A stretch of DNA of 64,000 nt from a bacterium (GTDB lineage Bacteria; Myxococcota_A; Bradymonadia; Bradymonadales; Bradymonadaceae). Position 1 is the first letter of the stretch. Each line of letters begins with the position of its first letter. The translations under genes were made by a program, and so were the position numbers. The notes beneath the pieces are model-generated. The model was not told the origin of the DNA. It saw only the letters and a program-made list of their open reading frames with translations, and ran no database searches. Below are positions 13,188-58,282 of this stretch, piece after piece. The stretch spans positions 92,631 through 156,630 of the forward strand of contig JAUIBR010000002.1 in assembly GCA_030427705.1 (NCBI GenBank). The letters run 5' to 3'.

Positions 13188-14344
13188 AGATCGGCATCCT
13201 GGGCGGCGGACAGCTCGGATGCATGCTGTCCGAGTCCATCATCAAATACGGCGGGACGCCTATCGTTCTATGTCGCGACGGCGAACCCGCGACCGACCGC
13301 GTCCGCCATTGCATGACCGGCTCGTGGAGCGACCCAGACCTGCTCAAGCGCTTCTTCGACACAGTCGACGTCGCTACGATCGAAGTCGAACATGTCGACC
13401 TTGACGCGCTTGCCCCCTTCGCAGACCAGCTGCGACCTTCGATTGCAAGCATCCGAACGACCCAGCACCGCATCCACGAAAAGCGCTTCCTGGCTGCTGC
13501 GGGCCTACCTCACGCGCAGGTTCACTTGTGCGAGTCTGTGGCTGAGGCCAAAGCCCTGTTGAACTCCAACATGACCTACCCACGAGTGCTAAAGACTGCG
13601 CTCGGCGGATATGACGGGCGTGGGCAGTTTTTCCTGGAGTCAGAGGCTGACTTCGCCCAAGCCCTCGACGAGCTCGGCGACCATGTCGACGCGGTAGGAA
13701 TCGTCGTCGAAGAAGCCCTCGACATTCACGCGGAGTACAGCTGCATCGCAGCCAATTCGAACGGGCAGCTCGTGTCGTTCCCAGTCTTCGAGAATGACCA
13801 CAAAGATCATATCTTGGACACGACGACCGTGCCGGCGAATATCCCGGCGGCGCTTGAATCTGAAGCACGTAGGGTTGCGATGCATGCGGCAAAAGAGCTC
13901 GGAATCTCGGGACTGCTCACCACCGAGTTCTTCGTCACCAAGACCAAACCTGAAGGCCCGGTTATCGAGGTCGACGGGCACTACCTGATGGTCAACGAAT
14001 TCGCACCACGACCTCATAACTCAGGCCACGTCACGCGCAACGCCTGTACATTGAGCCAGTTCGACATCCTCGCCAGAGCACTACTGAATCTGCCACTCAT
14101 CGAGCCCAAACTGCATGCGGGCGGGTTCTCGATGGCTAACTTATTGAGCGACATTTGGGGAGAGCACGAAGAGCTTCCACTGGATGCTCTGGGGGCCCAC
14201 CAAGACGTTGTGGATGTGATTCTGTACGGGAAGAGCCCGTCTCGCCCGAAGCGTAAGATGGGGCATATCGTCGCGGCGGCAGCCAATGCCGACACCGCAC
14301 GAAACGCCGCTGTGGCGTGCCGGGATGACCTCGACCGCCGCTAG
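13184..14344 (+). CDS. purK: N5-carboxyaminoimidazole ribonucleotide synthase (ATP-grasp)
   Basis: N-terminus [18 protein letters not shown]-grasp body. Overlaps the purE stop in an ATGA arrangement. Confidence 0.88.
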
Positions 14345-17777: not shown

Positions 17778-20030
17778 CTAGCGCGCTTCTACCGTATTCC
17801 GACCGCTTCGCCAACGTGTGCGATTCGCCCATTCTTCGCCAGCTTGCGCATACGGACTAGACTTCGCTTTGGACAATTGTTCAAACACTTCAATGGCCTC
17901 GTCTCTACCCAGCCAATAGAGCGCCTGTCCGTACATTAGCTCCGTCTCATATTCCAAAATTTCATCGCCCATTCGGCCGCGCGCAGCATCCAAAAATGGA
18001 AGTGCCCGCGTAAACTCATTGGCCCCCCATAGCCGACGTCCGATCAAGTAGTTAGCAAGGGGGTTATCAGGATTTCGGCGCACCCAATCGGTTGGGTAGA
18101 ACAACGCGACCTGGGAGTCCGGCTCACGCAACAGGTAATCGAGCCCAAGTTCGGCGGTCGGTCCGGACGTCGAACGCAACGTCCCGCGTTTCACCGTCAC
18201 CAACCGATGTGTATCGAGCGGAACCCCAAGCTCCAAACACCGCGAGTACTCACCATCAGCGTTCTTCAAGCTCCCCTTGACCCAGAGCGCATCGCCCAAG
18301 AGTTGACGGCCTTGCGCCTCGAACGACGGCCCCAAATCAGCATCGATGACCTTCTGTGCGGTTGCCGCCGCTTCATCAAAGCGCTGAACCTTTAAGAGAA
18401 ACTGGGCATACTCAAGTTGATATCGAGGATTGTCGTCATAACCCAGAATCTTCTGGAAGAGCGCCTCGGCCTGATTGACGTCGGATGCGTCCAACGCCAG
18501 ATACGCCTCACGTCGCCACTCGCCGATGACTCGCGCACACTTCTTCTGAAATATGCTGGGTTTGTCGTAAACGAAGCGGGCTTGCGCCTTCTGCCGTTCG
18601 GACAATTCCACGGTGTCGATAAACGCTTCCCATTCCGACACCAGCTCGTCCACGGATTTGCCATAAGCCTTCTCGAACTCACCATGGCCGTATGCGGCGC
18701 GGATCTTCTCGATTCCATACGTATCGCGCAGGTAACGAATAAACGAGCCGACCAAGGTGTAGGCGCGCCCAGAGCTCGCCGTCCAGAATCCACTCGCACT
18801 CAGAAGCCGACGAATGTCAGGTGCTCTATCCAAGGCGCGCAGCGCAGCAGATGCCTCGTGAGGCGTCATATTGCGTGCTGGCCAATCGGCGGCGGTGGCA
18901 ATTCCCTCGACCAGCCCCATGTTGATGCCCACAAGGTAGCGGGTGCTCAAGCGCAAGGGGCCAGTTCCGAAAGATGGTGTGAACAAGTGCGAAAGCTCGT
19001 GTGCCAGCAAGTGGTCGCCGGGTTTGCGCCACATGATGTGCATCTCTCCAAGCCATAGCTTCGCGACGAGGGTACGTCGCCCGCCCATCAGTTGGCCCTT
19101 CACTTCCCGGTTGGGATAGACATAGCTCTCGAGCTTATCGCCGCCGTCCTTCACGGGGTCCAAACCGAAGAACTCGACCATTTCGTGGTAGCGAAACTCG
19201 TGGTCGTCTTTCAGGTGCTCTATCTCTTTTCGAAACTGCGCGTTGGCAGGGAAATAGATGATGAAGTGCTCGGTCTCGACGCGTCCACCAAGCTGCTTCT
19301 GAATGTGTGCCCGGTCGATGTCGATGCCGTGGTCGACGCGGTTGGTGAACATCCATGCACACCCAACAAACGCGAAGACCGCAACTACAGCCATCAAGGC
19401 GTGGGGTCGCCCTGTGCGAAACCGCCAGCGAGCATCGAAGGCACTGACGACAGTCGCCACGCCTAGCAAACACATGACTCGGTACCAGACCAAGGACGAC
19501 GGCACGCTCAGCGCTTCGTCGTAGATCGAGCCACTGAAGTAGCCCAAAAACCACTGAAAGCCCGTGATCGGCGGCTGGAGTGCCAAATGGGCTAGAAACC
19601 ACGCGATGGAACCGATGACAGCGGCGACGGAAACCAAGATCCGCACGCCGCGCGTCCGAAATCCGCCCACCGACAGAAGCGCCACAGTTTGCCCGATGAG
19701 CAACGAGGGCACGACCAGCACCAACCAGAACAACAATCCAGTGGCTGGGTCACAGTTCTCGACACGAAGTCCGTTCAGCGTCAGCAACGCCAACGGCCCC
19801 GAAAGTAAAAGCAGATGCCAGGCCAATAGCTGAAGGCTGCGAACCCAAGGCGAGTCCAGCGTTTGGAAGGATGTCGGACAGCGCTCAGTCCAGAAGCGAT
19901 GACCTAGCGCAACGGACGCAAACCCGCCAATGACCGCAAATAGCGCCGCCGATTCGTAACCCACAATATTGAACAGTGGGACAAAACAACAAATCAGCCC
20001 CAGCAGCAGATAGCCGAACGCGAGCTTCAT
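17778..20030 (-). CDS. Polytopic membrane protein (about 8 N-terminal TM helices) fused to a Peptidase_MA_2-like HExxH domain and a TPR-like C-terminus
   Basis: Hydrophobic N-terminal 330 aa. Zincin motif LAHELSHLF ... GLVEGIATAADW. TPR-like C-terminal helices. Confidence 0.55.
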   Translation of the reverse strand: MKLAFGYLLLGLICCFVPLFNIVGYESAALFAVIGGFASVALGHRFWTERCPTSFQTLDSPWVRSLQLLAWHLLLLSGPLALLTLNGLRVENCDPATGLLFWLVLVVPSLLIGQTVALLSVGGFRTRGVRILVSVAAVIGSIAWFLAHLALQPPITGFQWFLGYFSGSIYDEALSVPSSLVWYRVMCLLGVATVVSAFDARWRFRTGRPHALMAVVAVFAFVGCAWMFTNRVDHGIDIDRAHIQKQLGGRVETEHFIIYFPANAQFRKEIEHLKDDHEFRYHEMVEFFGLDPVKDGGDKLESYVYPNREVKGQLMGGRRTLVAKLWLGEMHIMWRKPGDHLLAHELSHLFTPSFGTGPLRLSTRYLVGINMGLVEGIATAADWPARNMTPHEASAALRALDRAPDIRRLLSASGFWTASSGRAYTLVGSFIRYLRDTYGIEKIRAAYGHGEFEKAYGKSVDELVSEWEAFIDTVELSERQKAQARFVYDKPSIFQKKCARVIGEWRREAYLALDASDVNQAEALFQKILGYDDNPRYQLEYAQFLLKVQRFDEAAATAQKVIDADLGPSFEAQGRQLLGDALWVKGSLKNADGEYSRCLELGVPLDTHRLVTVKRGTLRSTSGPTAELGLDYLLREPDSQVALFYPTDWVRRNPDNPLANYLIGRRLWGANEFTRALPFLDAARGRMGDEILEYETELMYGQALYWLGRDEAIEVFEQLSKAKSSPYAQAGEEWANRTRWRSGRNTVEAR

Positions 20031-20033
20031 GAA

Positions 20034-20759
20034 TTACTTGGACCGGGGCATGTACTGGGCGTCGAAGTTGCCCATCTTCATCACCTGCCCCTTTTTGATG
20101 CCGTGCTTTTGGACCCAGCCGGCTTTCAGCTCGATGACGTATCGAGCCGGACCTTCGGACTGCCGCCCTTGCAGGGTCAGTGGTTCGGCGCCCTCGATGA
20201 AGCTGACGACCTTTCCGTCATCGCCTACGAACACCATATCCAGAGGCATCAATGTGTTCTTCATCCAGAAGGACCGAATTCCCTCGGTCGGGTAGATGAA
20301 AATCATGCCCCAGTCGTCTTTCATTTCGCGTCGGAACATCAGACCGCGAGTTTGTTCGTAGTCTGGGATGGCGGTCTCCATGAAGAAACGCGAGGGCTTA
20401 GGACTCGTCTGAAACTCGACCCAAGGCGTGGATTCATCATGCTCGCCCGTGATGGCGGGTGGAGTCTTGCAGAAGCCATCGATACAACGCAGGAATCCAC
20501 GGCAGCCGCGGTCATCGCGGCAGGCCTTGGCCTCTTCGGTAGGCTTGGGCGAGTCCTTTTGCGCGGTCGGGTCCTTTTTAGGTTCGACCTTTGGCTCAAC
20601 CGGTTTGGGCTTAGGCGTCTCTTTCGGCTGTTCGGGAGCAACCGGCGGTTCCGGCTGTTTCTCTTGGTCCGTTTTGCAGGCCGTCAGGGCCAGCAGCAGC
20701 AGACTACTTACCGCGAAGCGTTTGATTAATGAGCGCTTGAAGGTCAGCGTCTTTTTCAT
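20034..20759 (-). CDS. DUF192-family lipoprotein with a Pro/Lys/Glu-rich linker and a 4-Cys motif
   Basis: Lipobox LALTACK. PEPK-type linker. CRDDRGCRGFLRCIDGFC. The C-terminal DUF192-like region is MIFIYPTEG ... WMKNTLMPLDMVF. Confidence 0.6.
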   Translation of the reverse strand: MKKTLTFKRSLIKRFAVSSLLLLALTACKTDQEKQPEPPVAPEQPKETPKPKPVEPKVEPKKDPTAQKDSPKPTEEAKACRDDRGCRGFLRCIDGFCKTPPAITGEHDESTPWVEFQTSPKPSRFFMETAIPDYEQTRGLMFRREMKDDWGMIFIYPTEGIRSFWMKNTLMPLDMVFVGDDGKVVSFIEGAEPLTLQGRQSEGPARYVIELKAGWVQKHGIKKGQVMKMGNFDAQYMPRSK

Positions 20760-22971
20760 TCTTTGCTCGGTCTTTCAGCAGTGGCGTCGCGCCCAATTTG
20801 CCCATAGCGATGATGGCTTCGCGGCGAACCTTTTTATCAGGGTCGTTTGCAACGCTCAGTACCAGTTCTTTAGCGCTAGGGTGGCCCGTCTCTCCGAGTG
20901 CGGCGATGGCGGCCAACCGCATGTCCTCTTCGTCGGCGTTCAATTGCAGGGCGATACCCGTGACAGCCTTGTCGTCTTTGAACGTGCCCAATGCGGTCAC
21001 GGAGGCGATTCGGACGGACAAGTCATCATCGGTCACACCACCAGACAGAAGCGAAATCACTTCACGAACGCCTTGTTTGTCGTCTCGAGACACGAGTCGG
21101 GCGAGCGTGGTCATCGCAGCCGCTCGGACGGCAGGTGACTTGTGTTTTGCGAGTGCTTTGAACTTGTCCCACTTGCCGGCTTCGCCGCGTTTTCCAAGCG
21201 ATGTCACTGCCGCAGCTTGTACTTCAGCTGAGCTGTCTTCCAGGTACTTCGTCAGCTCTTCCAGAAGCTCGGCGCCCTTGAAGTTGCCCATCCCGGTTGC
21301 GACGTCGGCACGCACTGAATCACTCTTGTCGCTGATGACCGTCTTGAGCGCCGTAGCGGCACGCTTGTCAGCAAAGACGCCGATCGCGCGAGCACACGCA
21401 CCACGAATCAGCGGGTCACGACTCTTGAGCCCATCGGTCAGCACCTTGAATGTCTTGGCGTTGGCTTTCTTCTCTTTCTGCGCACGCTCACCAACCGCAC
21501 TGTATGCGGCCCGCTTCACGTTTGCGTCCTTTACGTTGGTCTGCTCCAGAACGACCTTTAATGGCTGCTTGACCATCAATTCATAGCCAGCTTTCTCCAT
21601 GTATTCGGCGTCCTTCTTCGACTTGATGGCCCGCGAAAACGCTGCTGCAGATTTGACATCGCCTCGATTCACGAGCTCGTCCGCCGTCGTGCGGCGAGTC
21701 CAGCGGGTATCGCTGGTGATATACGACTCAAGCGTGGTGCGTGCTGCATCGTCTTTGACGCTGTTCATCGCGACGATTGCCTTGGTGCCCTCGTCCTCTT
21801 TGGCGTTCAGGACCAGGTAGTTCAGACCCGCAATCTTCTGTGGGACGGTCTTGTCCTCGGACAGGTCGCGCGCAATCTGCAGGCGAACGTCAGCGTTGAC
21901 TTTGGAGTCCTTCAGGGCCTTCTCTTGCGCTGCAGCGGCATTGACTTTCTCCAACGACTCAGCCGCGGCAAATGCCACCTTGAGGCGTTTATCGGTCAAA
22001 TGGTCGGCAAGCGCAGGGACGACGCGCTCGTCCTTGTAACCTGCAAGTTCTTTGGCCGCCGCGAGTGATGCCTTCTCGTCGCCCTTCTCGAGGTAATAGA
22101 GAGGCTTCTGGATATTGTATTTCTTATCTTTGACCTTACCCAGGAACTCCGCGCCTTTGGCGGCCAGCTTGGCGTCCTTCTCGGCCTTCAGGAATGCAAC
22201 TGCAGCGTCCGCGACAACGGTGTTGTTTCGCTCAGGTTCCAAGACCTCCAGCGCCGTTTCACGAACGGCTGCGCGGCTATCCTTCAAAAGCGCAGCGACT
22301 TGCTCCGCGTAAGGAACTTTCAGTGTTGGCAGCGCCTTTGCGACATTCGTCACTGTGTAGGCGTCCTTTGCGTTCAGGTAACTGTACAGGGCCTTGACCA
22401 GCTCAGGGTCCTTATTGCGCCATTTTGCGGCGACTTCTGTCGATGGGTGGATGCTGCCGTCGGGGAACACCACCTGCGCATGTGGCGTGCTCAGAGACGG
22501 AATCGCGCGCCACAGTGGTACCTGAAGCGCGTAGTGTGGGAATGGCACATCTTCTCGCGACATCGGACCGGTCGTGTAACCGGGGAAATCCACGCCTTTC
22601 ACACCAAGCTCCGTCAGCGTGAACACCGTTTCGGCGATGATAATCAGCGAGTACTTCGACACTTTGGGCGAGATATTAACCGTGACCTTGGCGGTCGCTG
22701 GATTGTTGCCCTTCACGATGATGGCCGAGCCGCCATACGTACCACGCTTTGCTTTCTTCAGGAGCGTGAACGCACGTTTGATATGCGTGGCCGTCGGCTT
22801 GCCTTTGAGCGAAATCTCGGCCTTCGGGATAAGGACCCACTGTGTGGTCGTGTCGATCTCAACTTTTTCGTATGAGTAGCGGACCGTACCCGCATCTGCG
22901 GCGGCCGACGAACTGATCGTCAAAGTGACAAGTGCAGCAATCAAGGCTGCGATCACGGGTCGTTGCATCAT
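20704..22971 (-). CDS. Secreted HEAT-repeat (PBS-lyase-type) protein
   Basis: Signal peptide MMQRPVIAALIAALVTLTISSSAAADA. Many D..VR..A..AL HEAT-like repeats. The 3' end overlaps the DUF192 gene start by 56 nt. Confidence 0.6.
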   Translation of the reverse strand: MMQRPVIAALIAALVTLTISSSAAADAGTVRYSYEKVEIDTTTQWVLIPKAEISLKGKPTATHIKRAFTLLKKAKRGTYGGSAIIVKGNNPATAKVTVNISPKVSKYSLIIIAETVFTLTELGVKGVDFPGYTTGPMSREDVPFPHYALQVPLWRAIPSLSTPHAQVVFPDGSIHPSTEVAAKWRNKDPELVKALYSYLNAKDAYTVTNVAKALPTLKVPYAEQVAALLKDSRAAVRETALEVLEPERNNTVVADAAVAFLKAEKDAKLAAKGAEFLGKVKDKKYNIQKPLYYLEKGDEKASLAAAKELAGYKDERVVPALADHLTDKRLKVAFAAAESLEKVNAAAAQEKALKDSKVNADVRLQIARDLSEDKTVPQKIAGLNYLVLNAKEDEGTKAIVAMNSVKDDAARTTLESYITSDTRWTRRTTADELVNRGDVKSAAAFSRAIKSKKDAEYMEKAGYELMVKQPLKVVLEQTNVKDANVKRAAYSAVGERAQKEKKANAKTFKVLTDGLKSRDPLIRGACARAIGVFADKRAATALKTVISDKSDSVRADVATGMGNFKGAELLEELTKYLEDSSAEVQAAAVTSLGKRGEAGKWDKFKALAKHKSPAVRAAAMTTLARLVSRDDKQGVREVISLLSGGVTDDDLSVRIASVTALGTFKDDKAVTGIALQLNADEEDMRLAAIAALGETGHPSAKELVLSVANDPDKKVRREAIIAMGKLGATPLLKDRAKNEKDADLQALINQTLRGK

Positions 22972-48850: not shown

Positions 48851-49876
48851 GTGTTTGAGATGCAAAAAGTCTGGTGGGGTCTCGCACTAATCGCATTTAT
48901 TACTGCGTGTACCACTGCAGCTCAAACGACCGAACCCACGCCGAAGCCTCAAATAGAGCAGCCGCCGCCACCTCCGAAGAAAGAGGTAGTGGTCGAAGAA
49001 CCCAAGGCGGCACCCGGTCCGTTCACCGTAGCGATCGTCGCTGATCTGAATTCTAGCTACGGCAGCTACGAGTACACTCCGGCTGTCCATGCAGCCGCGG
49101 CATATCTGGCGCAAAGCCGTCCTGATCTTGTGCTTAGCGCTGGTGACATGGTGGCGGGTCAGAAACGCGGTTTGGATTACCCCGGTATGTGGTCGGCGTT
49201 TCACCACGCCTTCACCGACCCAGTCCTGTCAGCTGGACTGACGTTGGCTGTGACCCCGGGCAATCATGACGGTGCAAAGCAAGAGAAGTTCGCCGTTGAA
49301 CGCCGAGAGTTCGTTAACCAGTGGCAGCCCCGAAAACCTGACTTGGAGTACGTTAGCGACGAGCACTATCCACTGATGTACGCATTCCAGAAGCGAGGCG
49401 TCTTATTCATATCGCTAGACGCCACTACCCCAGGAAAGCTGTCTCCGATGCAGCATGCTTGGCTTGAGAGCATCCTGTCCAAAAGCGACGAATTCAAATC
49501 GACGATTGTCTACGGTCATGTCCCCCTGGTGCAGTTCGCAGCTGGGCGAGGACGCGAGGTGCTGGGCGATGCGAAGCTTCGTGAAACTCTGCACAGGTAC
49601 AAGGTAGATGCCTATATCACCGGCCATCATCACGCGTACTACCCGGCTCGTGATGAATCGCTCTTGATGTTGGGGGCGCCGTGTCTTGGCACAGGACCAC
49701 GGCCGCTCACCGGACACACGCAGAAGAGCCAGAAAGGTCTACTTTGGCTCACGTTCGCTGAAGATGGCTCGTTTCAGTACGAAGCTCGGATCGCACCCGA
49801 TTTCACATCGACTATCGCCGTCGATGAACTCCCCGAAAAGTTGAAGACAAAGGCAGGCACGGTCGTTCGCGACTAG
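48851..49876 (+). CDS. Lipoprotein metallophosphoesterase (calcineurin-like)
   Basis: Lipobox FITACT. Pro-rich linker. GD (SAGDMVAG), GNHD and GHHHAY motifs. Confidence 0.75.
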   Translation: MFEMQKVWWGLALIAFITACTTAAQTTEPTPKPQIEQPPPPPKKEVVVEEPKAAPGPFTVAIVADLNSSYGSYEYTPAVHAAAAYLAQSRPDLVLSAGDMVAGQKRGLDYPGMWSAFHHAFTDPVLSAGLTLAVTPGNHDGAKQEKFAVERREFVNQWQPRKPDLEYVSDEHYPLMYAFQKRGVLFISLDATTPGKLSPMQHAWLESILSKSDEFKSTIVYGHVPLVQFAAGRGREVLGDAKLRETLHRYKVDAYITGHHHAYYPARDESLLMLGAPCLGTGPRPLTGHTQKSQKGLLWLTFAEDGSFQYEARIAPDFTSTIAVDELPEKLKTKAGTVVRD

Positions 49877-52812
49877 AAACCGCCGCCGTAAACGAAGTAA
49901 AAGTCATGGATTCCGCCGGTATCGAAGCCGTACGCGTATCCCATGCGAAGATTGCCTGTGAAGTAGTAGGCGAATGTTGTGGATAACAACACCTCGGCGC
50001 CGGCCGATTTCAGGTATTCCGCGTCACCAAGGAAGCCGTTGTAGGCCGTGGCTGTGTCAAAGTAAGCCGCCCCTTTCAGCTGTCTGAAAAAGACCGGCAA
50101 CGTGCCGAAGCCCTTGTCAAAATCCAAGAGCGGAAACCGGTACTGACTTGAGATCGATTGGTAGGTCGACCCTCGCTGAATTCCAGGTGGATAGCCCGGC
50201 AGAACCTGCCGGCGCGTGGGTTCTTGGAAGATGATGCTTGAAAGAACATCTTGCGGCAGCGCCCCGCCAACCGAAAAGACAGAACCCGGTCCCGTCGCAG
50301 CCGCGGACATGCCGCCACGCAGGCCAAGGGCGAACACATGTCGGTCAATCCATGGATTTGGGAGGTAACCCGTGGCCCGATAGGTCATGGTCAAACGCTC
50401 AAACTCACTGCCGATGGTGGGATCTTGGACCGAGAATCCAACATCGGCCGTGATGCCCTGTTCTGTGCTGACTGAGCGCGCGTATCGCTCGAGATTCGAA
50501 TAGAAGACCGAAAACAGCAGCTCGTTTGTGAAATACGATTCAGGTTTGGTCGGCTCAAGGTCTCCAGGGTCCTGCTGAACCACCGGCTCGTCATTGACCG
50601 TGAGGTACTCCAACGTGAATGCCGTGGTGATGCTAAGTTGATCCCGCGTATCCAGGATTGGATATCCCAACGCGACGCGACCCGAATACTCGCGGCGCTG
50701 AATCGTCTCGAACTCACTTCCCACGAACAGCGCACGCCCTGACGGGAAGTCACTGATTCGACCCAACACCGAGAAATCCACCGGCCCACCGGTATAGGCG
50801 TAGAAGCCGCCGGCGCGGACCGAAGATTCTTCCAATTCGTTCGTGTATGTGAACGCCGTCGCCAATTGATAGATATGACGCGACGCTGGGTCCTCGCCAG
50901 ACAACGTCGCCGAGAACGCTGTGCCCGACGTCAGCACGCCGATGTCTGGCGTGAGCATCAGCGGTGCCAGCCATTTCACAGGACGATAGTCGCCGTACTT
51001 GAACTCGGCCGTATCGACCGTTGGGTACTTCGGTTCCACCAGACTGTCTTGCAAAGCTCTCTGGGAGGCGTCCGGCAGGCTTGATGGCCGCTTGAATCGC
51101 GCGATCTCGTAGCCTTTTGACGTGTATGACGTGACGTAAATCCACTTGCCGTCACGCGTGGGCTCTGGACTCCAAACGCCGTTGACCACGTTCGAGACTC
51201 GTCGCTTCTTCAGAGTTCCCGGGTCAACCTCGTAGATATTGAAGATGCCGTTTCGGTCGCTTGCGAACAGCACGTTGCCGCTGATTGGGTCAAACGTGGG
51301 ATCCAAGTCTTGCGCAAAATCGCGGGTCAGGGGTTTGAGCGCCTCTTTCTGCGGCTTGGTGATGTCGTACATCCAGATATCGCGCTGGCCGTCCTCAAGC
51401 GTCCACCAGCTAAATACGATTCGGGTTGAGTCGGGGCTGAACTGAGGCGTTGCTATCTGTTGCCACCGCGCATCCGATTTCGCCGGATGTTGATTGCCAC
51501 CGACGAGCACGACTTCGTCCCCCGAGAAATGGTCCCAACGACGCAGCACCAGCTCCATCGTTCCATTGACGTTGCGAACATAGGTAATCCACTTGCCGTC
51601 GGGCGACACCGCGGCTTCACGGGCCCGTTCGCCGTTGGTCATTCGAATCTTGCTACCGGTATCAAAATCGTACCGATACAGGTCCTGAAAGCTGTAAACA
51701 TTGAGCTTTGGCGTCGCTTGGCTGTACAGCAGGTAGCGGCCGTCTGGGGAGAACGCGCTGGGGCCAAACGAAGGCTGGATGTCCAGAAACGGCTTGGTCT
51801 TCCCTGAGTCGGGGTCATGGACGGCGTAGGCGGGCGTGTTGTGAAAATCATTGGCGTAGAAGACCACATCGTCTGTGCCGGGCCGCTGCCTGGCGTAGCC
51901 ATTCTCGCCGCCGATCTTCGTGATGTAGTTCAGCTTCGTCCGACCACCGGCAATAACGGCGACACGTTCTGCATGCGCCTTCGCTGTGGCCGCTGCCATC
52001 CACTCTTCCCAAAGCCGCTCTAACGTCTGCCCCGACACTTCCTTCGACGTGCGATTCAAGCTCCACGGCACAATTCGCGAGCCATAGATATGGTTGAATT
52101 GCATGCCGAAATCTTCGCCATGCTTGTCGAATACGTAGTCCAAGAACAGGCTGCCATACAGATAGGCGGAGGACCCAAATGGCCAGTTAACGGGTGTGCC
52201 CGTGGCCGTTCCAAGCTCAAACAGCACGCCGTCCAATGCGGCTGCACGCGACCACATCTGCCAGATGGCTCCATTAACACGCCCTCCCCGCGTCCGCTTC
52301 GACTCGTGGTAGGTGGCCAGACCCTCGATGTACCAACGGGGCGAGGTTTGGTTTGGAGAGAGCTGTTTACCGATGACGTAGTTGATGTACGGCGAGATGC
52401 CCAGGACCGTGTCCATGTGCAGGATGTGAACGTATTCGTGGTAAACAACGACGCGAATCCAGTCGTCGTAGAATCCCAGCACACCTGACGGTTCGGGGGC
52501 CATCCCGTAGATATTGATGCGATTGCGGCCATAGGTCGTCGCAGAGCCATTGGCAGAATCGATGCGGTCGATGACGTTTACATGTGTCTTGTTTCGAGGC
52601 ACCCAATTGAAAAGGGGCACCAGTGCTTCGTGCGCTTCTTCGCACGTAACCGCGACCTTGTGCGCGAGCGCCTCGAGCCCCGAATAGTAGTGCACATAGA
52701 AGTGCGGGGTTTCGATGGTGTAGTAATCGAGCGATGGATCATCGATCCCAAATGCAGGCGTTGCCGCAAGTGCCGCAAGCGCAAAAGCCAACGCCGCGAG
52801 AAGCCGTCTCAC
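49873..52812 (-). CDS. Outer-membrane tri-domain protein: Peptidase_MA_2-like zincin, TolB-like beta-propeller and C-terminal beta-barrel
   Basis: Signal peptide MRRLLAALAFALAALAATPAFG. Zincin motif VVYHEYVHILH ... YIEGLATYHES. SPDGKWITY and SPDSTRIVFS are WD40/TolB-like blades. The C-terminal roughly 350 aa has alternating amphipathic strands and ends ...VYGGGF. Confidence 0.55.
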   Translation of the reverse strand: MRRLLAALAFALAALAATPAFGIDDPSLDYYTIETPHFYVHYYSGLEALAHKVAVTCEEAHEALVPLFNWVPRNKTHVNVIDRIDSANGSATTYGRNRINIYGMAPEPSGVLGFYDDWIRVVVYHEYVHILHMDTVLGISPYINYVIGKQLSPNQTSPRWYIEGLATYHESKRTRGGRVNGAIWQMWSRAAALDGVLFELGTATGTPVNWPFGSSAYLYGSLFLDYVFDKHGEDFGMQFNHIYGSRIVPWSLNRTSKEVSGQTLERLWEEWMAAATAKAHAERVAVIAGGRTKLNYITKIGGENGYARQRPGTDDVVFYANDFHNTPAYAVHDPDSGKTKPFLDIQPSFGPSAFSPDGRYLLYSQATPKLNVYSFQDLYRYDFDTGSKIRMTNGERAREAAVSPDGKWITYVRNVNGTMELVLRRWDHFSGDEVVLVGGNQHPAKSDARWQQIATPQFSPDSTRIVFSWWTLEDGQRDIWMYDITKPQKEALKPLTRDFAQDLDPTFDPISGNVLFASDRNGIFNIYEVDPGTLKKRRVSNVVNGVWSPEPTRDGKWIYVTSYTSKGYEIARFKRPSSLPDASQRALQDSLVEPKYPTVDTAEFKYGDYRPVKWLAPLMLTPDIGVLTSGTAFSATLSGEDPASRHIYQLATAFTYTNELEESSVRAGGFYAYTGGPVDFSVLGRISDFPSGRALFVGSEFETIQRREYSGRVALGYPILDTRDQLSITTAFTLEYLTVNDEPVVQQDPGDLEPTKPESYFTNELLFSVFYSNLERYARSVSTEQGITADVGFSVQDPTIGSEFERLTMTYRATGYLPNPWIDRHVFALGLRGGMSAAATGPGSVFSVGGALPQDVLSSIIFQEPTRRQVLPGYPPGIQRGSTYQSISSQYRFPLLDFDKGFGTLPVFFRQLKGAAYFDTATAYNGFLGDAEYLKSAGAEVLLSTTFAYYFTGNLRMGYAYGFDTGGIHDFYFVYGGGF

Positions 52813-54191
52813 TTAGACGCCCCTGGCCCAAGACGGTGGCTCAGCACAATCCAATCACCACGTTCGCGAACAACCTGCCAATCCGGGTGACTCGCGATGT
52901 TTGCTGCGAACTCGTAGTCCGTCTTTTTGTTCAGCAACGCGATGCGAATACCGTACTGTTGAAACACGCCGCGCCATGTATCACCCATGCGGACTGCGGC
53001 ATGCATCACCTCGGACTTTTCATCATTCAATGCCGGATTGGGCGCAGTCGCTAGCACACGCTGTGGCGCTCGTTCAGACAGATACCAGGCTAAGACGCCA
53101 GCTGCCTCTGGAGGGTGATACACCGGCTCCAAACGACCCCACCCTGCGATGAGCTGCGCCTCTTCAACCGGCACGTTGCTCTTGATGAGTGCAACCGCGG
53201 GCGGCGTTTTCCGTGCATCCGAAAACCACAATCGAACCGTCTCCATATGGGAAAAAAGCGGCATTGTGACAATCGCGACGATCGCCGCAAAGCCAGCACC
53301 CACCGCCCATTTTGAGAACGGAGTCTCTTTCGTATCACTTGCGTGGAACGCCCACGGAAAGACAACGGCAGCTAGCCAAGGGACCGCAGAAAAAGCCGCA
53401 ACAACCGTGCCTATCATGGCAACGGCGATAGAGTCGTAGGCGGAGTTTTTGGACCGTACGCGATGAACAATGAGAGCCAGCAGGCCAACTCCGATCAACG
53501 TGCCGAACGGGTTAAACTCGAACGAGGCCAGCGTGGGAAAGACGAGCGCGCCAGCGGGATTCGCAAACGCCAATAAGATGGACGCAATCCCTGCTCCCCA
53601 AAACCAACGTTTCGCTTCGCCTGCGCCCGGTGAGACCGCCCACAATAGCGCTGGGACAACCCAAAAATGGCTATCCACATTCACCCAGAACGGCATGGCG
53701 ATGGCGGCTAGAAGCCAGTATCTCGATGCACCAGAATAGCGAACGGCCATGATGACTAGAGCGGCAACGGATATCAGAACTGCCCCAAACATCGACGGAC
53801 CGACGTACCACGTCGCGGTTGAGGCGAGGATGCCCGCGGACACCGCGATATCAGTTCGACCTCGTTCGGTCTTCGGCCAGGTGACCATGAACCCGACGGC
53901 ACCTGCGAGGATCGACCTTACGGTCGCAACCCCAGCGTCGCCGATGACTCCGTGGATTTTGAAAAGCCACCAACGAGACAGCCAGCTCTCATAGAAGACA
54001 GGCTCCTGAGCTGGAGATGTGTACACAAAGTAGTTTGCGTGAGGGATGGCCTGAAGTTGCTCAACGAGCCGGCCGATCGCGAGGTGCCACCAATAGTCAC
54101 TATTGGGAATCACCACGAGGTTAGCCGCGATCACGGCACCTGCAGCGGCCACCATCGACAGGACCAATCTGGTTTTGAAGTCGGCTTTCAA
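52809..54191 (-). CDS. Polytopic membrane protein, possibly a GT-C-fold glycosyltransferase or O-antigen-ligase-like, with a periplasmic C-terminal domain
   Basis: About 11 hydrophobic helices. N-terminal loop DYWWHLAIGRL. About 130-aa soluble C-terminus. Confidence 0.4.
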   Translation of the reverse strand: MKADFKTRLVLSMVAAAGAVIAANLVVIPNSDYWWHLAIGRLVEQLQAIPHANYFVYTSPAQEPVFYESWLSRWWLFKIHGVIGDAGVATVRSILAGAVGFMVTWPKTERGRTDIAVSAGILASTATWYVGPSMFGAVLISVAALVIMAVRYSGASRYWLLAAIAMPFWVNVDSHFWVVPALLWAVSPGAGEAKRWFWGAGIASILLAFANPAGALVFPTLASFEFNPFGTLIGVGLLALIVHRVRSKNSAYDSIAVAMIGTVVAAFSAVPWLAAVVFPWAFHASDTKETPFSKWAVGAGFAAIVAIVTMPLFSHMETVRLWFSDARKTPPAVALIKSNVPVEEAQLIAGWGRLEPVYHPPEAAGVLAWYLSERAPQRVLATAPNPALNDEKSEVMHAAVRMGDTWRGVFQQYGIRIALLNKKTDYEFAANIASHPDWQVVRERGDWIVLSHRLGPGASK

Positions 54192-54192
54192 C

Positions 54193-55917
54193 TCACAACC
54201 GTTTTCGCAACGACGAAGCTCCGAGTTTGATGGAACCCCATGCTGCCGCGGCCGGCATCAAGACCGCGATCGTCACCGCGATATAGTTTGCCATCCTTGG
54301 GGGGTTCATCGTCTTCGCCTCTAAGAGGCTTCCCAGATACATCGTTACGCGGAACGATCCAACCAACACCGAGAGGACCAAGAACATCCCCAAGATCATG
54401 TAGATGACCGCGCCAAAGCTGGACGCGATTTTGGCGGCATTGGGGTTGTGAAACTGCGGATAAACCGCACCGAATCCAACGGACATTGCCGACACACCCA
54501 ACGTGATAATCAGGATGATGAAGCTCGCCAGGAAGCAATAGGCAATGTTTTGAAGAACCAAGAGATTAGAGGCCCAGATCAGTGCTTGTCCGACGATGAG
54601 TACCGGGGCGAGGCCGCCGAGCCACTTGCCCCAGAGAAACTTCTCGAGCGTGATGGGAGCCTGCAGGATCATCCAAAATGAACGCCCCTCAACGCTGACA
54701 GTTGGAAACAAGAATCGGCCAGACAATGCCACGACCACGAAGCCGCATGCGGCAAGGTTGAAGAAGAACAGACCCACGTCGCCTAGCAGACGCTCGTCTG
54801 CGGCAATCTCAAAGTACTTATAGTTGACCAGGTAGATGACCATGATCGCGATGACGACCAGGATTTGAGACCACTGCGCGGCATCCCGGATGAAGATCTT
54901 TTGATCCTTTCGAATCAATTGCCGCAACATCGAGGTGACGTGGTCACCTTGGGCCTCTAGCTCGCCCAGACGCTCTTCAAGCGTATCGATCGAGCTCGTG
55001 GTCTGCTTCAGCATCCAATCGCGGAACGTCGTGACCAGGCTCTGGCCATGTCGCCCCTCTTGGGCCTTGCTGTATCCCCGGTAGTACCAAGGTCGGTGGA
55101 ACCAGGTGGCAATGAAGTACAGCGCAATCGGCGTGCTGTAGAGCAGCAGCAGCGGCCAAGGGTCAATGGACGTCCGGCCGTAAAGTACTGGGATGAGAGC
55201 TCCCATCGCCCAATCGCTTGGCAAATACGAAGTCGTTGGGGTCGACAGCAGGTTCAACATCTCGCCGATCGACGCGAACGACTCGGGGTTCAAAAGTCGC
55301 TCAGGTCGTAGCGCGCGGATAACCGTGAATAGGATCGCGAATCCCGCGACGCCCAGGAACAAAAACGCATCCCGGGTGCGGTTTGCGGCGAGGATATTGG
55401 TGATAAACAGCCCGACGAGGGTGGCCAATGCTGTGGGTATAGCCACGAACGGGACCAGCACGGCGATCAACATCACGTAGTAACTTGGGCCCGCACCCAC
55501 GCCGACCCCAGCCGCGATGAAGATCGGCATACCGAACAGAAAGATGACCCATGAACTCTGCGTTAGCGACTCAAGATATCGCGCGCCAAACAGCATATCT
55601 TTGGGTATCGGCTTGCTCATCAAGAACTCGAGCTCATCCGCCAAATAGAACGTGCTGAACACAGTCACGATGTTTGAAAACGCCAGCAGCCCCAAAAAGA
55701 CGAGGAACGCGATGGATAAGAGCTTCTGGATTAGCAGCTCACCCACGGGTTCGATGGTCAGCGCCTCGGTCACGATCCATAGACTGGAACGAAACAGCAT
55801 CACCCAGAAAATCAGGCTCAACGCGGTGAACGCAGGGATGCGGTACTTGCCATCCTGCTCGGAGCGCATCGATCCGCGAATCATGCGGAATTTGATTCCG
55901 ATGAGCTTCTGAATCAC
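54193..55917 (-). CDS. Large polytopic permease of the 'putative ABC exporter' type, partnered with the upstream ATPase
   Basis: 574 aa with at least 10 TM helices. Overlaps the ATPase gene stop. Confidence 0.55.
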   Translation of the reverse strand: MIQKLIGIKFRMIRGSMRSEQDGKYRIPAFTALSLIFWVMLFRSSLWIVTEALTIEPVGELLIQKLLSIAFLVFLGLLAFSNIVTVFSTFYLADELEFLMSKPIPKDMLFGARYLESLTQSSWVIFLFGMPIFIAAGVGVGAGPSYYVMLIAVLVPFVAIPTALATLVGLFITNILAANRTRDAFLFLGVAGFAILFTVIRALRPERLLNPESFASIGEMLNLLSTPTTSYLPSDWAMGALIPVLYGRTSIDPWPLLLLYSTPIALYFIATWFHRPWYYRGYSKAQEGRHGQSLVTTFRDWMLKQTTSSIDTLEERLGELEAQGDHVTSMLRQLIRKDQKIFIRDAAQWSQILVVIAIMVIYLVNYKYFEIAADERLLGDVGLFFFNLAACGFVVVALSGRFLFPTVSVEGRSFWMILQAPITLEKFLWGKWLGGLAPVLIVGQALIWASNLLVLQNIAYCFLASFIILIITLGVSAMSVGFGAVYPQFHNPNAAKIASSFGAVIYMILGMFLVLSVLVGSFRVTMYLGSLLEAKTMNPPRMANYIAVTIAVLMPAAAAWGSIKLGASSLRKRL

Positions 55918-56777
55918 GCCGCACCCTCTTCGTCGTCGTCATTCTCGTCGACCTGGCCGTCGGCGCCGGTCGAATCGAACGGGCTTGAGCCGCCGGCGAA
56001 GCGCTGAGCGACCTTCTCGGCCCGCTCTTCCTCAGACTCTTGTGTCAGGCGCAGGAACACGTTTTCCAACGAACCATCGTTCGCGCCCGACTCCATCCGA
56101 AGCTCAGAAAGGGTTCCCCGAGCAATGATGTGGCCGTGGTTCACGATCGCGATCTGGTCGCACACTTCCTCAGCGACTTCCAAGGTGTGGGTCGACAACA
56201 AAATGGTCATCCCATCGCGATGGGTCAGCTTGCGAAACAGGTCTTTGATAAGCCGGTGGCCTTTGGGGTCGAGGCCAACCATGGGCTCGTCGACGACCAA
56301 CAGCTTTGGCTCTGGGAGCAACGCGCCCGCGAAGACCAACCGCTGCTTCATGCCATGCGAGAAGCTCTCGATCAGGCTATCGGCCCACTCTGCCAGTTCG
56401 AATGTCGCCAACAATTCGCGGATGCGCTTTGCCACCGTCGTGGACTTCATCTGGTAGAGCCCACCCACAAATGACAGGTACTCAAACGCGGTAAGTTTGT
56501 CGTAGACGTAGGGCCGGTCGGGGATAAAACCCGTAACCTTCTTCGCCTCAATCGGTTCTAGATCGGTGCGATGCCCATCGATCGTGATGGTCCCTTCCGT
56601 GGGCTGCAGCAGCCCAGTAATCATGCGCAAGGTCGTGGTTTTGCCGGCACCGTTGGGTCCCAACACGCCAAAAATCTGGCCGGGCTCAACGGAAAGTTCA
56701 ATGTGGTCGACCGCCGTGAAGTTGCCATAGCGCTTCACCAAATTGTCCAAGACTACGATCGGTTCTGATTCACTCAT
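55914..56777 (-). CDS. ABC transporter ATP-binding protein
   Basis: Walker A GPNGAGKTT. Signature FSHGMKQRL. Walker B LLVVDEP. Acidic C-terminal tail. Confidence 0.9.
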   Translation of the reverse strand: MSESEPIVVLDNLVKRYGNFTAVDHIELSVEPGQIFGVLGPNGAGKTTTLRMITGLLQPTEGTITIDGHRTDLEPIEAKKVTGFIPDRPYVYDKLTAFEYLSFVGGLYQMKSTTVAKRIRELLATFELAEWADSLIESFSHGMKQRLVFAGALLPEPKLLVVDEPMVGLDPKGHRLIKDLFRKLTHRDGMTILLSTHTLEVAEEVCDQIAIVNHGHIIARGTLSELRMESGANDGSLENVFLRLTQESEEERAEKVAQRFAGGSSPFDSTGADGQVDENDDDEEGAA

Positions 56778-58282
56778 CAGTTGAAATCCGCTTCTGGAGT
56801 CACTTCAACGCGACTGATCTTCAACGCCTCAAGGTGTGGTTCGAACGTCTCCCGATCCAACACCTCTGACACGCTCAATTGAATTTGGTTAACGCCCGGA
56901 ATCAGGGTCGTCCGCGTGGGGTCCAGGTCGACGAACCGGTCGTTGTTCCACGCCTGAGCCCAGTAGCGTGGCACCCATTTGCCGTCGATTTCTTCCGCAC
57001 CCAGGACGTACCTGGCCGGCACGCCCTTCTTTCGCAGCACACCGACGGTGAGTTCAGCCATGGCCGAGCTGGTGCCCTTGCCAGAAGCAAAAGCGGCGTT
57101 ACCTGTGGCGTGTTCCGAATCGCCGTCGAACTCGATTGCATTGGCCACGTTCCGCGCGATCTTCTCGACAAGTTGAACCCCTTTAAGTTCATCGGTGTCT
57201 TCAAGAATTTTCGCGGCCGCTTCCTCGGATACGTCGGCAGGTGCGAGCTTGTACTCTTCAAGGCGTTGTTCGGTTTGCAGCTGTGGGCCCGCGCGCTCGG
57301 CAGTGTCGACCTCGGCGCTGGTGGAGGTCTTGCTGGTCGCCTTCTGCGCGCCGCTGTCCAAGATTAGGGCCAAACCCTCAGGCAGATTGGTGAGCTTGTA
57401 CTTCGAGCGTGAGGTGATGCTTCCGGCTCCGCGGATGAATCCCACGGCCTCATCGACACTAATCTCCGCGGCGCCCTTCTTCTTTGCGCTTTCAAATTTG
57501 GAGCGAAGCGCCTTCGACCGCGACAGCCCAAGCGCCGGGGGAATCCGCGCGGCTACGATTCGAAGTGGGAGTTCTTGAATGTGCACATCCCCTTTCGCAT
57601 CGACATACACGTCCAGTTCAGTCCCCGCGATTTGCTGTTTGAAGTGGTAGGTATCGACGACGGTGTCGTAGACCTCAACCTGATGCTGCCGAACGTATTC
57701 GAAGCGCATATTGGTCATCCCCATGACCATAGGGTCGAAGTACTCCTGTTCGAAGACATCTCCAGGCGTCAGAGAGCCGGACTGTGCTGCGAGCTGGTTA
57801 AACACCGAGCTCGACAATCTGGGTGGCTCCTTCAGTTGGATTCGCCGTTCGCGTTCGTTCTCGTCGATTGTGTAACTGAGCACGACCTCGTTGCCGTTGA
57901 CGGTGCCGGCCAGGTCAAAAGCAGTGAGTGCAGTCTGCACTCGCCCCGAGACCTTTCGAAGGTACGCTGCCTTGTCGACCGTAGCTTTGATGGAGGTTTC
58001 GAGCAGCTGCTCGGTGCCAAGGCTCGAGATGTTCATCAGCAGGTCGTACTCAAGCAACCACCCATCCTCGATAGGGGTGCGAGTTTCGTGAATCACGCCG
58101 ACCTGTTCGTCGTCGCGCGTCAGAATCATCCAGCTTTCGCCCGAGGTGAGCACGATCCCCGAAGGCTGCTCGCTGGCGCGCTGCTCTTCGGCGAAGTTCA
58201 CCTCGTAGACATAGAGACCCAGGACGGTCAGCCACGCGCCAACCGCAATAACGCCAACAATATCGAATGGCCGAACGCTCAA
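56777..58282 (-). CDS. N-terminally membrane-anchored transglutaminase-like-fold protein with Cys to Ser and His to Gln substitutions (predicted pseudo-enzyme)
   Basis: TM helix IVGVIAVGAWLTVLGLYVY. TGase-core-like GTSSAMAEL...GVPARYVLG...YWAQAW...VDLDPT. Confidence 0.45.
   Translation of the reverse strand: MSVRPFDIVGVIAVGAWLTVLGLYVYEVNFAEEQRASEQPSGIVLTSGESWMILTRDDEQVGVIHETRTPIEDGWLLEYDLLMNISSLGTEQLLETSIKATVDKAAYLRKVSGRVQTALTAFDLAGTVNGNEVVLSYTIDENERERRIQLKEPPRLSSSVFNQLAAQSGSLTPGDVFEQEYFDPMVMGMTNMRFEYVRQHQVEVYDTVVDTYHFKQQIAGTELDVYVDAKGDVHIQELPLRIVAARIPPALGLSRSKALRSKFESAKKKGAAEISVDEAVGFIRGAGSITSRSKYKLTNLPEGLALILDSGAQKATSKTSTSAEVDTAERAGPQLQTEQRLEEYKLAPADVSEEAAAKILEDTDELKGVQLVEKIARNVANAIEFDGDSEHATGNAAFASGKGTSSAMAELTVGVLRKKGVPARYVLGAEEIDGKWVPRYWAQAWNNDRFVDLDPTRTTLIPGVNQIQLSVSEVLDRETFEPHLEALKISRVEVTPEADFN

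Follow-up and report, generated by a model that had tools for sequence, protein, structure and literature searches.

The gene at 49873..52812 (minus strand) of the window, as we call the whole 64,000-nucleotide stretch of DNA analysed here, encodes a protein that combines a signal peptide, a zincin, a beta-propeller and an outer-membrane beta-barrel in a single chain. It belongs to a large family whose first catalogue dates from 2014, and its architecture is thus not new. We favour, at slightly better than even odds (about 55%), a periplasm-facing, barrel-anchored endopeptidase that would act on outer-membrane-associated proteins; we infer both its topology and its substrates. The gene and its parts are as follows:

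49873..52812, minus strand: complete coding sequence from the open reading frame list, 979 aa plus stop, comprising signal peptide, gluzincin, PD40 propeller, linker and Omp85 barrel
52747..52812, minus strand: Sec signal peptide (aa 1-22), read from the sequence; its cleavage site is A-F-G and a lipobox cysteine is lacking
51928..52743, minus strand: metallopeptidase domain of gluzincin type (clan MA-like), aa 24-295, better conserved than any other module
52426..52440, minus strand: HEYVH, aa 125-129, two zinc-ligand His and the catalytic Glu, invariant in 36 of 36 aligned sequences
52303..52335, minus strand: WYIEGLATYHE, aa 160-170, with E163 as putative third zinc ligand, from the alignment
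51088..51927, minus strand: PD40/TolB-type beta-propeller, aa 296-575, 22 DSSP strands in about six blades, from Pfam and profile comparison
50959..51087, minus strand: 43-residue linker that joins the propeller to the barrel, aa 576-618, from AlphaFold2 (AF2) secondary structure
49876..50958, minus strand: outer-membrane beta-barrel of Omp85 type with 16 strands and a C-terminal Phe, aa 619-979, from AF2 and fold comparison
50191..50202, minus strand: LPGY in loop L6, aa 871-874, where Omp85 proteins have (V/I)RG(F/Y), from the alignment
50044..50064, minus strand: strand-13 motif YFDTATA, aa 917-923 (family F-x-(D/E)-x-G-x-A), from the alignment

The GTG start overlaps the stop codon of the upstream gene (aaGTGAgac), and public data hold a protein, P0001, that is 100% identical to the product. 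The signal peptide, MRRLLAALAFALAALAATPAFG, lies directly after the start and is followed by IDDP. All homologues have an equivalent hydrophobic leader ending in AxA or AxG and then a conserved (D/G)DP, and a lipobox-like pattern occurs in only 7 of the 257 full-length family members. The initial annotation had called the zincin, propeller and barrel domains and had proposed AF2 modelling and Pfam searches as checks. The domain calls are borne out by Pfam PD40 matches, AF2, fold comparison and alignment, and its interpretation is supported. In the AF2 model (pLDDT 89.2, pTM 0.89) the C-terminal part of about 360 aa is a barrel and the HExxH region folds as a zincin. Among the proposed Pfam models, PF07676 (PD40 repeats) is significant in the window protein (E 2.8e-12), whereas PF13485 and PF01103 have no match.

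Conservation is highest in the zincin, and no other positions of the protein are as strictly conserved as its catalytic residues. Across an alignment of 36 sequences, which reaches down to 29% identity, H125, E126, H129 and E163 do not vary, and HExxH is kept in all 257 full-length members; thus, the motifs are not a matter of chance. Residues G164, A166 and E170 are, like E163, invariant in the same alignment. Downstream of HExxH, E(G/A)xA is found in 246 of the 257 members, 229 of which have it 33 residues away. A YLYG-like Tyr motif is present in 215 members. According to the AF2 model, HEYVH sits in helix 118-133 and E163, part of RWYIEGLATYHE (aa 159-170), in helix 159-172; by fold comparison the modelled domain has a thermolysin-like alpha/beta catalytic fold. 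Because HExxH, E(G/A)xA and the YLYG-like motif are kept to this extent and the zincin is the most conserved module, we predict an active enzyme and count this in favour of the endopeptidase reading. HEYVH and the downstream glutamate-zincin motif had been recognised at the outset, and the invariant E163 agrees with that assignment; the N-terminal zincin is likewise present, though it spans about 270 aa (24-295) and not the 200 first given. The signature had also been described as common to two other HExxH proteins of the window, and both do have HExxH with a downstream xEG(L/I)A:

14341..17127, minus strand: open reading frame with HExxH and downstream xEG(L/I)A, matching Peptidase_MA_2 at E 1.8e-13
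17778..20030, minus strand: open reading frame with HExxH and downstream xEG(L/I)A, identified by motif

Assigning the domain to a known peptidase family was less direct. Peptidase_MA_2 gave weak matches in only 4 of 19 N-domains (best E 0.0018), and no Pfam peptidase model reaches its gathering threshold in the window protein. A sequence-profile search of the N-domain against PDB returned nothing meaningful, and fold comparison alone worked; its matches include M1-like enzymes such as tricorn-interacting factor F3. In hhalign, WYIEGLATYHE pairs with RWFTEGLAEYE of a Peptidase_MA_2 protein (probability 91%), and a 17-residue insertion lies between HExxH and the Glu in this Omp85 zincin family, which accounts for the 33-residue spacing. 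At the sequence level a remote kinship of the zincin to Peptidase_MA_2 is supported. We rejected an M1 aminopeptidase, since GxMEN is absent and the HExxH-to-Glu spacing is 33 residues and not x18; the same spacing and the lack of GxMEN set the window zincin apart from M1 aminopeptidases, M30 hyicolysin/lugdulysin, M9 collagenases and Peptidase_MA_2. Roughly where M1 enzymes have the GxMEN exopeptidase motif, the window protein has ANGSA (aa 87-91), 34-38 residues before HExxH and without a Glu, which would argue for an endopeptidase rather than an aminopeptidase.

The SPDG/SPD repeats had been read as propeller blades, in agreement with the PD40 match above and with a comparison of the family profile with TolB structures (E 1.5e-28). 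The propeller also resembles those of tricorn and S9 peptidases in structure comparison. The protein shares with TolB of the Tol-Pal system a PD40 propeller of about six blades, but lacks TolB's N-terminal domain, and no tol-pal genes are found near 49873..52812. A true TolB was therefore rejected, TIGR02800 scoring 72 bits against a cut-off of 343 bits and at propeller positions only. The linker that follows (two short helices and one short strand in the AF2 model) is the least conserved segment, with 21% identity to distant members. No POTRA domain is matched by Pfam in the 979-aa protein, and 43 residues are too short for one, so the linker is not a POTRA domain.

The barrel, modelled by AF2 as long antiparallel strands, closely resembles BamA, TamA and Sam50 in fold comparison and has the 16 strands of the BamA/TamA/Sam50/TpsB type. 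Strands 11 and 12 are connected by loop L6, which is long (aa 839-882). The protein ends in FYFVYGGGF, so that both the C-terminal barrel and the terminal aromatic signature of the initial annotation hold. RG(Y/F) is present in L6 of 35 of the 36 aligned homologues and of 242 of the 257 family members, which suggests that the barrel is not merely decorative and which we likewise count in favour of the endopeptidase reading. Among these members PGY occurs in the window protein only, the conserved Arg being replaced by Pro (codon CCG at 50197-50199). Its strand-13 motif, which in the family resembles the Omp85 FxDxG and in most homologues reads F.D.G.A, keeps the Asp and has Tyr for Phe and Ala for Gly. 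Given Pro for the L6 Arg and Ala for the strand-13 Gly, the behaviour of this barrel may differ from the family norm, a point that we count against the endopeptidase reading. The local Pfam scan with PF01103 (surface antigen/Omp85) is negative for the identical P0001 too, and TIGR and Pfam BamA models score nothing on the window protein. Since many homologues carry a precomputed PF01103 match, we take its absence here as divergence and not as loss of the fold.

End-to-end homologues were found in at least 557 species genomes and form 1,468 clusters at 50% identity, mostly in Myxococcota. The closest are from Bradymonadales (51-55% identity), and no other public protein exceeds 55% identity to the window protein; homologues at 29-35% identity come from genomes labelled Sorangium, Polyangium and Anaeromyxobacteraceae. 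The architecture, initially described as unusual, is thus not so: a large family was catalogued in 2014, and the M. xanthus protein TwnR has been described with the same layout. Heinz & Lithgow (2014, PMC4104836) defined a 'WD40-like' (WD40 + peptidase) Omp85 subfamily, in which an M1-like peptidase domain and a PD40 propeller like that of TolB come before the barrel. They recorded the peptidase domain, while their main text covers the propeller only ('fusion between BamA and BamB') and passes over the protease. Members that they list include A9FGN9 of Sorangium and A7HC17 of Anaeromyxobacter. By AF2 and fold comparison the window protein agrees with this subfamily in layout; Bradymonadales were not in their sample. 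Under the DK1622 accession prefixes Q1D0-Q1D9, Q1DA and Q1DB their tables show four Q1D entries, which stand in other columns (three under BamA). The family is absent from the text of the M. xanthus outer-membrane proteome study PMC3222651.

Genetic data for this layout exist for TwnR (MXAN_2422) alone. It was described as a signal peptide, a peptidase, a TolB-like propeller and a BamA-like barrel (PMC8546572, 2021; PMC11287280, 2024), the same domain order as in the window protein and in the same phylum, the likeness being drawn from the published description. Null alleles confer resistance to Tween-20 and to SitA3, a lipoprotein toxin of the outer membrane; both resistances were complemented and are transferable by outer-membrane exchange (PMC8546572; PMC11287280). 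In a twnR deletion 13 proteins are up, three of them envelope-localised, and six more are found (almost) only in the mutant, including two predicted envelope proteins (PMC8546572; PMC11287280). TwnR is non-essential, and its loss raises stress resistance (PMC11287280). In our searches seeded with members from a Myxococcaceae MAG and from Vulgatibacter, no named M. xanthus protein was among the best 120. To our knowledge Bradymonadales do not carry the TraAB/SitA system, so the toxin phenotype of TwnR may not apply to the Bradymonadales protein.

Four genes lie upstream, with overlapping or abutting stop and start codons (52809..58282, minus strand), and likely form an operon with 49873..52812; NCBIfam returned nothing for any of them, and the following assignments are from Pfam:

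56777..58282, minus strand: transglutaminase-like gene
55914..56777, minus strand: ABC ATPase gene
54193..55917, minus strand: ABC_tran_2 permease gene
52809..54191, minus strand: gene for a 460-aa polytopic membrane protein without a family match

The same gene order occurs in Persicimonas caeni and in roughly half of 17 Bradymonadales-type loci, and in no locus below 40% identity. These genes are a lineage-specific context outside the family's core, and we rejected the ABC transporter/transglutaminase/460-aa membrane protein operon as an obligate partner, since only some Bradymonadales show the linkage. In the Polyangium locus an unrelated gene lies upstream of the family member, and the neighbourhood of twnR (a transporter, histidine kinase, RtcA, lipoprotein and PBP1C; PMC11287280) differs from the ABC/transglutaminase operon of the window. 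Some distant members adjoin lptB-rpoN-rapZ and periplasmic redoxin/DsbA genes, which we count as context for the endopeptidase reading. As it is not conserved across the family, the neighbourhood adds no functional support.

How might such a protein work? Omp85 domains that precede strand 1 are periplasmic. Since the zincin and propeller are N-terminal to the barrel, the barrel would most likely anchor both on the periplasmic face of the outer membrane; PMC11358297 calls such domains 'N-terminal periplasmic regions'. The zincin would then cut proteins that reside at the inner leaflet of this membrane or reach it, for instance lipoproteins and those outer-membrane proteins that are unassembled or in surplus, and the propeller, by analogy with TolB, BamB, tricorn and S9 peptidases, could serve as a substrate-docking or gating module. 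Loss of the protease would shift the protein composition of the outer membrane, which would fit the TwnR phenotypes of resistance to Tween-20 and to an outer-membrane lipoprotein toxin, each of them transferable with outer-membrane material. The closest known mode of working is that of BepA, a periplasmic M48 zinc protease with a TPR domain that acts at the BAM complex, and the window protein might work as BepA does beside BAM, but as a single chain. Both would be periplasmic zinc metalloproteases with a protein-interaction domain at the site of outer-membrane assembly; BepA (covered in PMC13067283) differs in being a separate soluble protein of another peptidase family and fold, with TPR in place of a propeller, and no homology was found.

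Counted against a periplasmic location is PlpD, where an Omp85 barrel is able to export an N-terminal enzyme domain to the surface. The protein might be a self-exporting surface protease that works like the type Vd/PlpD system, its barrel translocating a zincin-propeller passenger that digests extracellular or prey proteins. The organism is Bradymonadales-like and Bradymonadales are a predatory group; self-export would suit predatory members of Bradymonadales and Myxococcota. Omp85 proteins that have an enzyme domain at the N-terminus might be exported in the PlpD manner, according to Heinz & Lithgow (PMC4104836), and the initial annotation had left surface exposure open. The type Vd family is defined by a patatin passenger, a POTRA domain and an Omp85 barrel (PMC4104836), and Pfam matches neither patatin nor POTRA in the window protein. 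We regard self-export as unlikely and are equally doubtful of an outer-membrane assembly factor, a 'BamA fused to BamB' as proposed in PMC4104836, in which the barrel works, the propeller scaffolds and the zincin is a chaperone-like or regulatory appendage. The closeness of the barrel to BamA, TamA and Sam50, the L6 and strand-13 motifs kept in most members, and the name 'BamA/TamA family outer membrane protein' given to some of them by NCBI all speak for it. However, POTRA, the substrate-handling module of BamA, TamA and TpsB, is missing; BamA, TamA and Sam50 have POTRA domains, and the window protein instead has an N-terminal enzyme and a propeller, and lacks the conserved L6 Arg. TwnR, moreover, is dispensable and its loss beneficial under stress, and the zincin's catalytic residues are the most strictly conserved of all, an argument that selection acts on proteolysis.

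Peptide scavenging by a propeller-gated oligopeptidase seems to us quite improbable. On this view short unfolded peptides would pass through the propeller as a filter and so reach the zincin, much as in tricorn, prolyl oligopeptidase and DPP-IV, while the barrel did no more than anchor the protein in the membrane or conduct peptides. Precomputed Tricorn_N, Tricorn_2nd and DPPIV_N matches in homologues, the similarity to tricorn and S9 propellers and the M1-like fold matches (again factor F3) point this way, but the M1 exopeptidase GxMEN is absent and genes for peptide uptake show no consistent linkage. Towards the outside, Omp85 barrels are closed (PMC4104836), and the L6 and strand-13 motifs are conserved, so these barrels are no obvious peptide channels.

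The family might, though we think this unlikely, be a self-contained outer-membrane proteostasis machine, in which the lateral seam of the barrel would capture stalled or surplus barrels or lipoproteins, the TolB/BamB-like propeller hold them and the zincin cut them. If true, one POTRA-less polypeptide would recognise substrates as BamA does, act as a scaffold like BamB and proofread by proteolysis like BepA, and it would regulate outer-membrane composition generally, in Myxococcota and in several further phyla. POTRA-independent self-export of a folded enzyme of roughly 550 residues would be a more exotic variant.

The window itself adds one more divergent Bradymonadales member, whose L6 loop is atypical and whose operon, which includes an ABC transporter, is specific to the lineage, and little beyond. 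The family is large and its catalytic site strictly conserved, and two genetic phenotypes of TwnR are its sole functional data. If the periplasmic-protease reading is right, these proteins would exert a widespread, unrecognised control over the set of proteins retained in the outer membrane, and this would affect how well cells tolerate detergents and toxins.

The protein under study is encoded by the following reading frame:

49873..52812, minus strand: coding sequence of 979 aa with a GTG start

The start codon shares bases with the TGA stop of the preceding gene (aaGTGAgac). Judged by sequence, the product has an N-terminal Sec signal peptide of typical form, with no lipobox cysteine. The motifs quoted in the initial annotation were all recovered in this frame: HEYVH (aa 125-129), RWYIEGLATYHE (aa 159-170), SPDG-type repeats and the C-terminal FYFVYGGGF.

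The propeller was the only domain directly recognised by sequence libraries, through PD40 in Pfam (E 2.8e-12) and a partial TolB match in NCBIfam (72 bits vs the 343-bit cut-off); a Peptidase_M9 match in Pfam was sub-threshold. An AlphaFold2 model based on a 36-sequence homologue alignment (identities down to 29%) was confident (pLDDT 89.2, pTM 0.89) and consisted of these parts:

about aa 24-295: alpha/beta N-domain
aa 296-575: all-beta propeller of 22 strands in about six blades
between propeller and barrel: 43-residue linker
aa 619-976: sixteen long strands, with a 44-residue loop separating strands 11 and 12 of the barrel

The initial observation is confirmed, and its structural interpretation, namely a zincin, a propeller and an outer-membrane barrel in one polypeptide, is supported. 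Neither the Pfam scan nor the model revealed a POTRA domain.

A homologue search with a cut-off of E at most 0.001 returned 191 relatives, nearly all 950-1020 aa long and matching over their full length, with named relatives in Bradymonadaceae, Persicimonas and Polyangium; the nearest non-identical one shared 55% identity with our protein. Scanning one genome per species, we found relatives in at least 557 species. Among the matches listed, the top ones came from Microvenator and Bradymonadales MAGs (51%), and further carriers included Polyangia, Kofleriaceae, Haliangiales, Myxococcaceae, Vulgatibacter and several Nitrospirota MAGs. With full-length Nitrospirota members (L058, L060, L062, L063 and L067) at about 30% identity, the family extends beyond Myxococcota, reflecting either horizontal spread or an old family. 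Some representatives (P0172, 1244 aa; P0252, 1178 aa; P0260, 1084 aa) are longer by 100-260 residues, and their alignments fall into two or three stretches, which hints at additional domains, N-terminal or inserted, in some branches.

When representatives at 50% identity were searched exhaustively, 1,468 matched at E at most 1e-30. NCBI already lists family members under the names 'PD40 domain-containing protein' and 'BamA/TamA family outer membrane protein'. The architecture, initially regarded as unusual, is that of a known and widespread Omp85 subfamily, of which our protein is a new, divergent member. Heinz & Lithgow (2014) divided the Omp85 superfamily into subfamilies, 'WD40-like' among them, and their Table S3 records three results per member, namely a hit to a BamA/TamA barrel, one to TolB and the 'best aminopeptidase hit' (1z5h, 4kxd, 3qnf and 4ar1) (PMC4104836). 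In a 2024 paper the class is characterised by its 'divergent WD40 and peptidase domains' (PMC11358297).

Motifs were counted in 257 full-length members. HExxH was present in all of them and E(G/A)xA in 246; 215 had a YLYG-like tyrosine motif further downstream. Of the modules, the zincin is the best conserved: its identity to distant members is 38%, that of the propeller 32% and that of the barrel 26%, and 25 of the 44 invariant columns fall within it. Selection thus acts on an enzyme. The family carries ANGSA, which has no Glu, 34-38 residues before HExxH, about where M1 aminopeptidases have GxMEN; this suggests an endopeptidase. We consider a propeller-gated oligopeptidase improbable. N-terminal domains of Omp85 proteins are periplasmic, so the periplasmic face would be the default placement for zincin and propeller. 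Omp85 N-terminal regions are also worded as periplasmic in the literature (PMC11358297). Self-export of the protein to the surface, as in PlpD, appears unlikely, though somewhat less so than the oligopeptidase. About as doubtful as self-export is an assembly factor without POTRA in which the protease is secondary. The missing POTRA argues against a substrate-handling mechanism of the BamA/TamA/TpsB type; the barrel nevertheless retains the L6 RG(Y/F) motif (242/257 members) and a strand-13 F-x-D-x-G-like motif.

The best-supported reading, to which we give a probability of roughly 0.55, is a barrel-anchored, periplasm-facing zinc endopeptidase, with inferred topology, activity and substrates. 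The barrel would anchor the protease facing the periplasm, the propeller would serve as a docking or gating module, and the zincin would trim proteins at the outer membrane's inner face, or clear them altogether. Such a way of working would be like that of BepA beside BAM, but in one chain.

The same layout has been described for MXAN_2422 of Myxococcus xanthus, likened to our protein through that published description. Toxin resistance of the MXAN_2422 mutant is specific to the escort domain of SitA3 (PMC8546572). For this gene, since named twnR, each kind of allele obtained (nonsense, transposon and in-frame deletion) conferred narrow-spectrum Tween-20 resistance, a phenotype that was complemented; both resistances could be transferred to sensitive kin via outer-membrane exchange (PMC11287280). 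The deletion strain had 13 up-regulated proteins, three of them envelope-localised. Another six, including two predicted envelope proteins, were seen exclusively or nearly so in the mutant; the mechanism was called unknown by the authors (PMC11287280). A periplasmic endopeptidase fits these data: loss of the gene leads to a build-up of envelope proteins, both traits are passed on along with outer-membrane material, and the toxin concerned is a lipoprotein of the outer membrane.

Our gene closes a series of five coupled genes and is met by a convergent one:

52809..58282, minus strand: upstream coupled genes for a transglutaminase-like protein, an ABC ATPase, a PF16949 ABC_tran_2 permease and a polytopic membrane protein of 460 aa that matched no family in Pfam or NCBIfam
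48851..49876, plus strand: metallophosphoesterase (PF00149) with a lipobox (ITAC), overlapping the stop of our gene by 4 bases

The five-gene order recurs in Persicimonas caeni and in about half of the 17 Bradymonadales-type loci, and in none of the more distant loci examined; the coupled upstream genes are conserved in Persicimonas and several Bradymonadales MAGs. The gene upstream of the Polyangium member is unrelated. In two distant lineages (L003 1-7600 and L005 1-7950) the member lies just downstream of pyrG / lptB / rpoN / rapZ (PTS-Ntr) and upstream of periplasmic redoxin/DsbA genes, an envelope-biogenesis neighbourhood. As neighbourhoods differ between these groups, context yields no family-wide functional partner. 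A PF00149 metallophosphoesterase adjoins the family member in 6 Bradymonadales-type loci; in another Omp85 subfamily, 'Metallo' in Heinz & Lithgow, PF00149 is fused directly to the barrel (PMC4104836).

This copy deviates at two barrel positions:

50197-50199, minus strand: CCG codon of Pro872, at the Omp85 L6 RG(Y/F) position
about 50050-50052, minus strand: residue 921, Ala in place of the Gly conserved in the F-x-D-x-G-like motif of strand 13

Its L6 reads LPGY, the only case of Pro for the conserved Arg in the 257 members. Because the L6 and strand-13 motifs contact each other in BamA, the two deviations may be coupled, or they may stem from a sequencing error; they could represent a real relaxation of this contact or an error of assembly.

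The HExxH and xEG(L/I)A signature is, as had been claimed, common to two other proteins of the window, which lie on the same strand as, and close to, a HEAT-repeat protein:

14341..17127, minus strand: large TPR protein, Peptidase_MA_2 at E 1.8e-13
17778..20030, minus strand: large TPR protein, zincin signature by sequence, no peptidase match in Pfam
20704..22971, minus strand: HEAT-repeat protein, 755 aa
26271..29426, plus strand: 1051-aa protein with TPR repeats and a C-terminal SLT lytic transglycosylase domain

The three minus-strand genes may form an envelope protease cluster; the TPR-SLT protein is another large envelope enzyme of the window.
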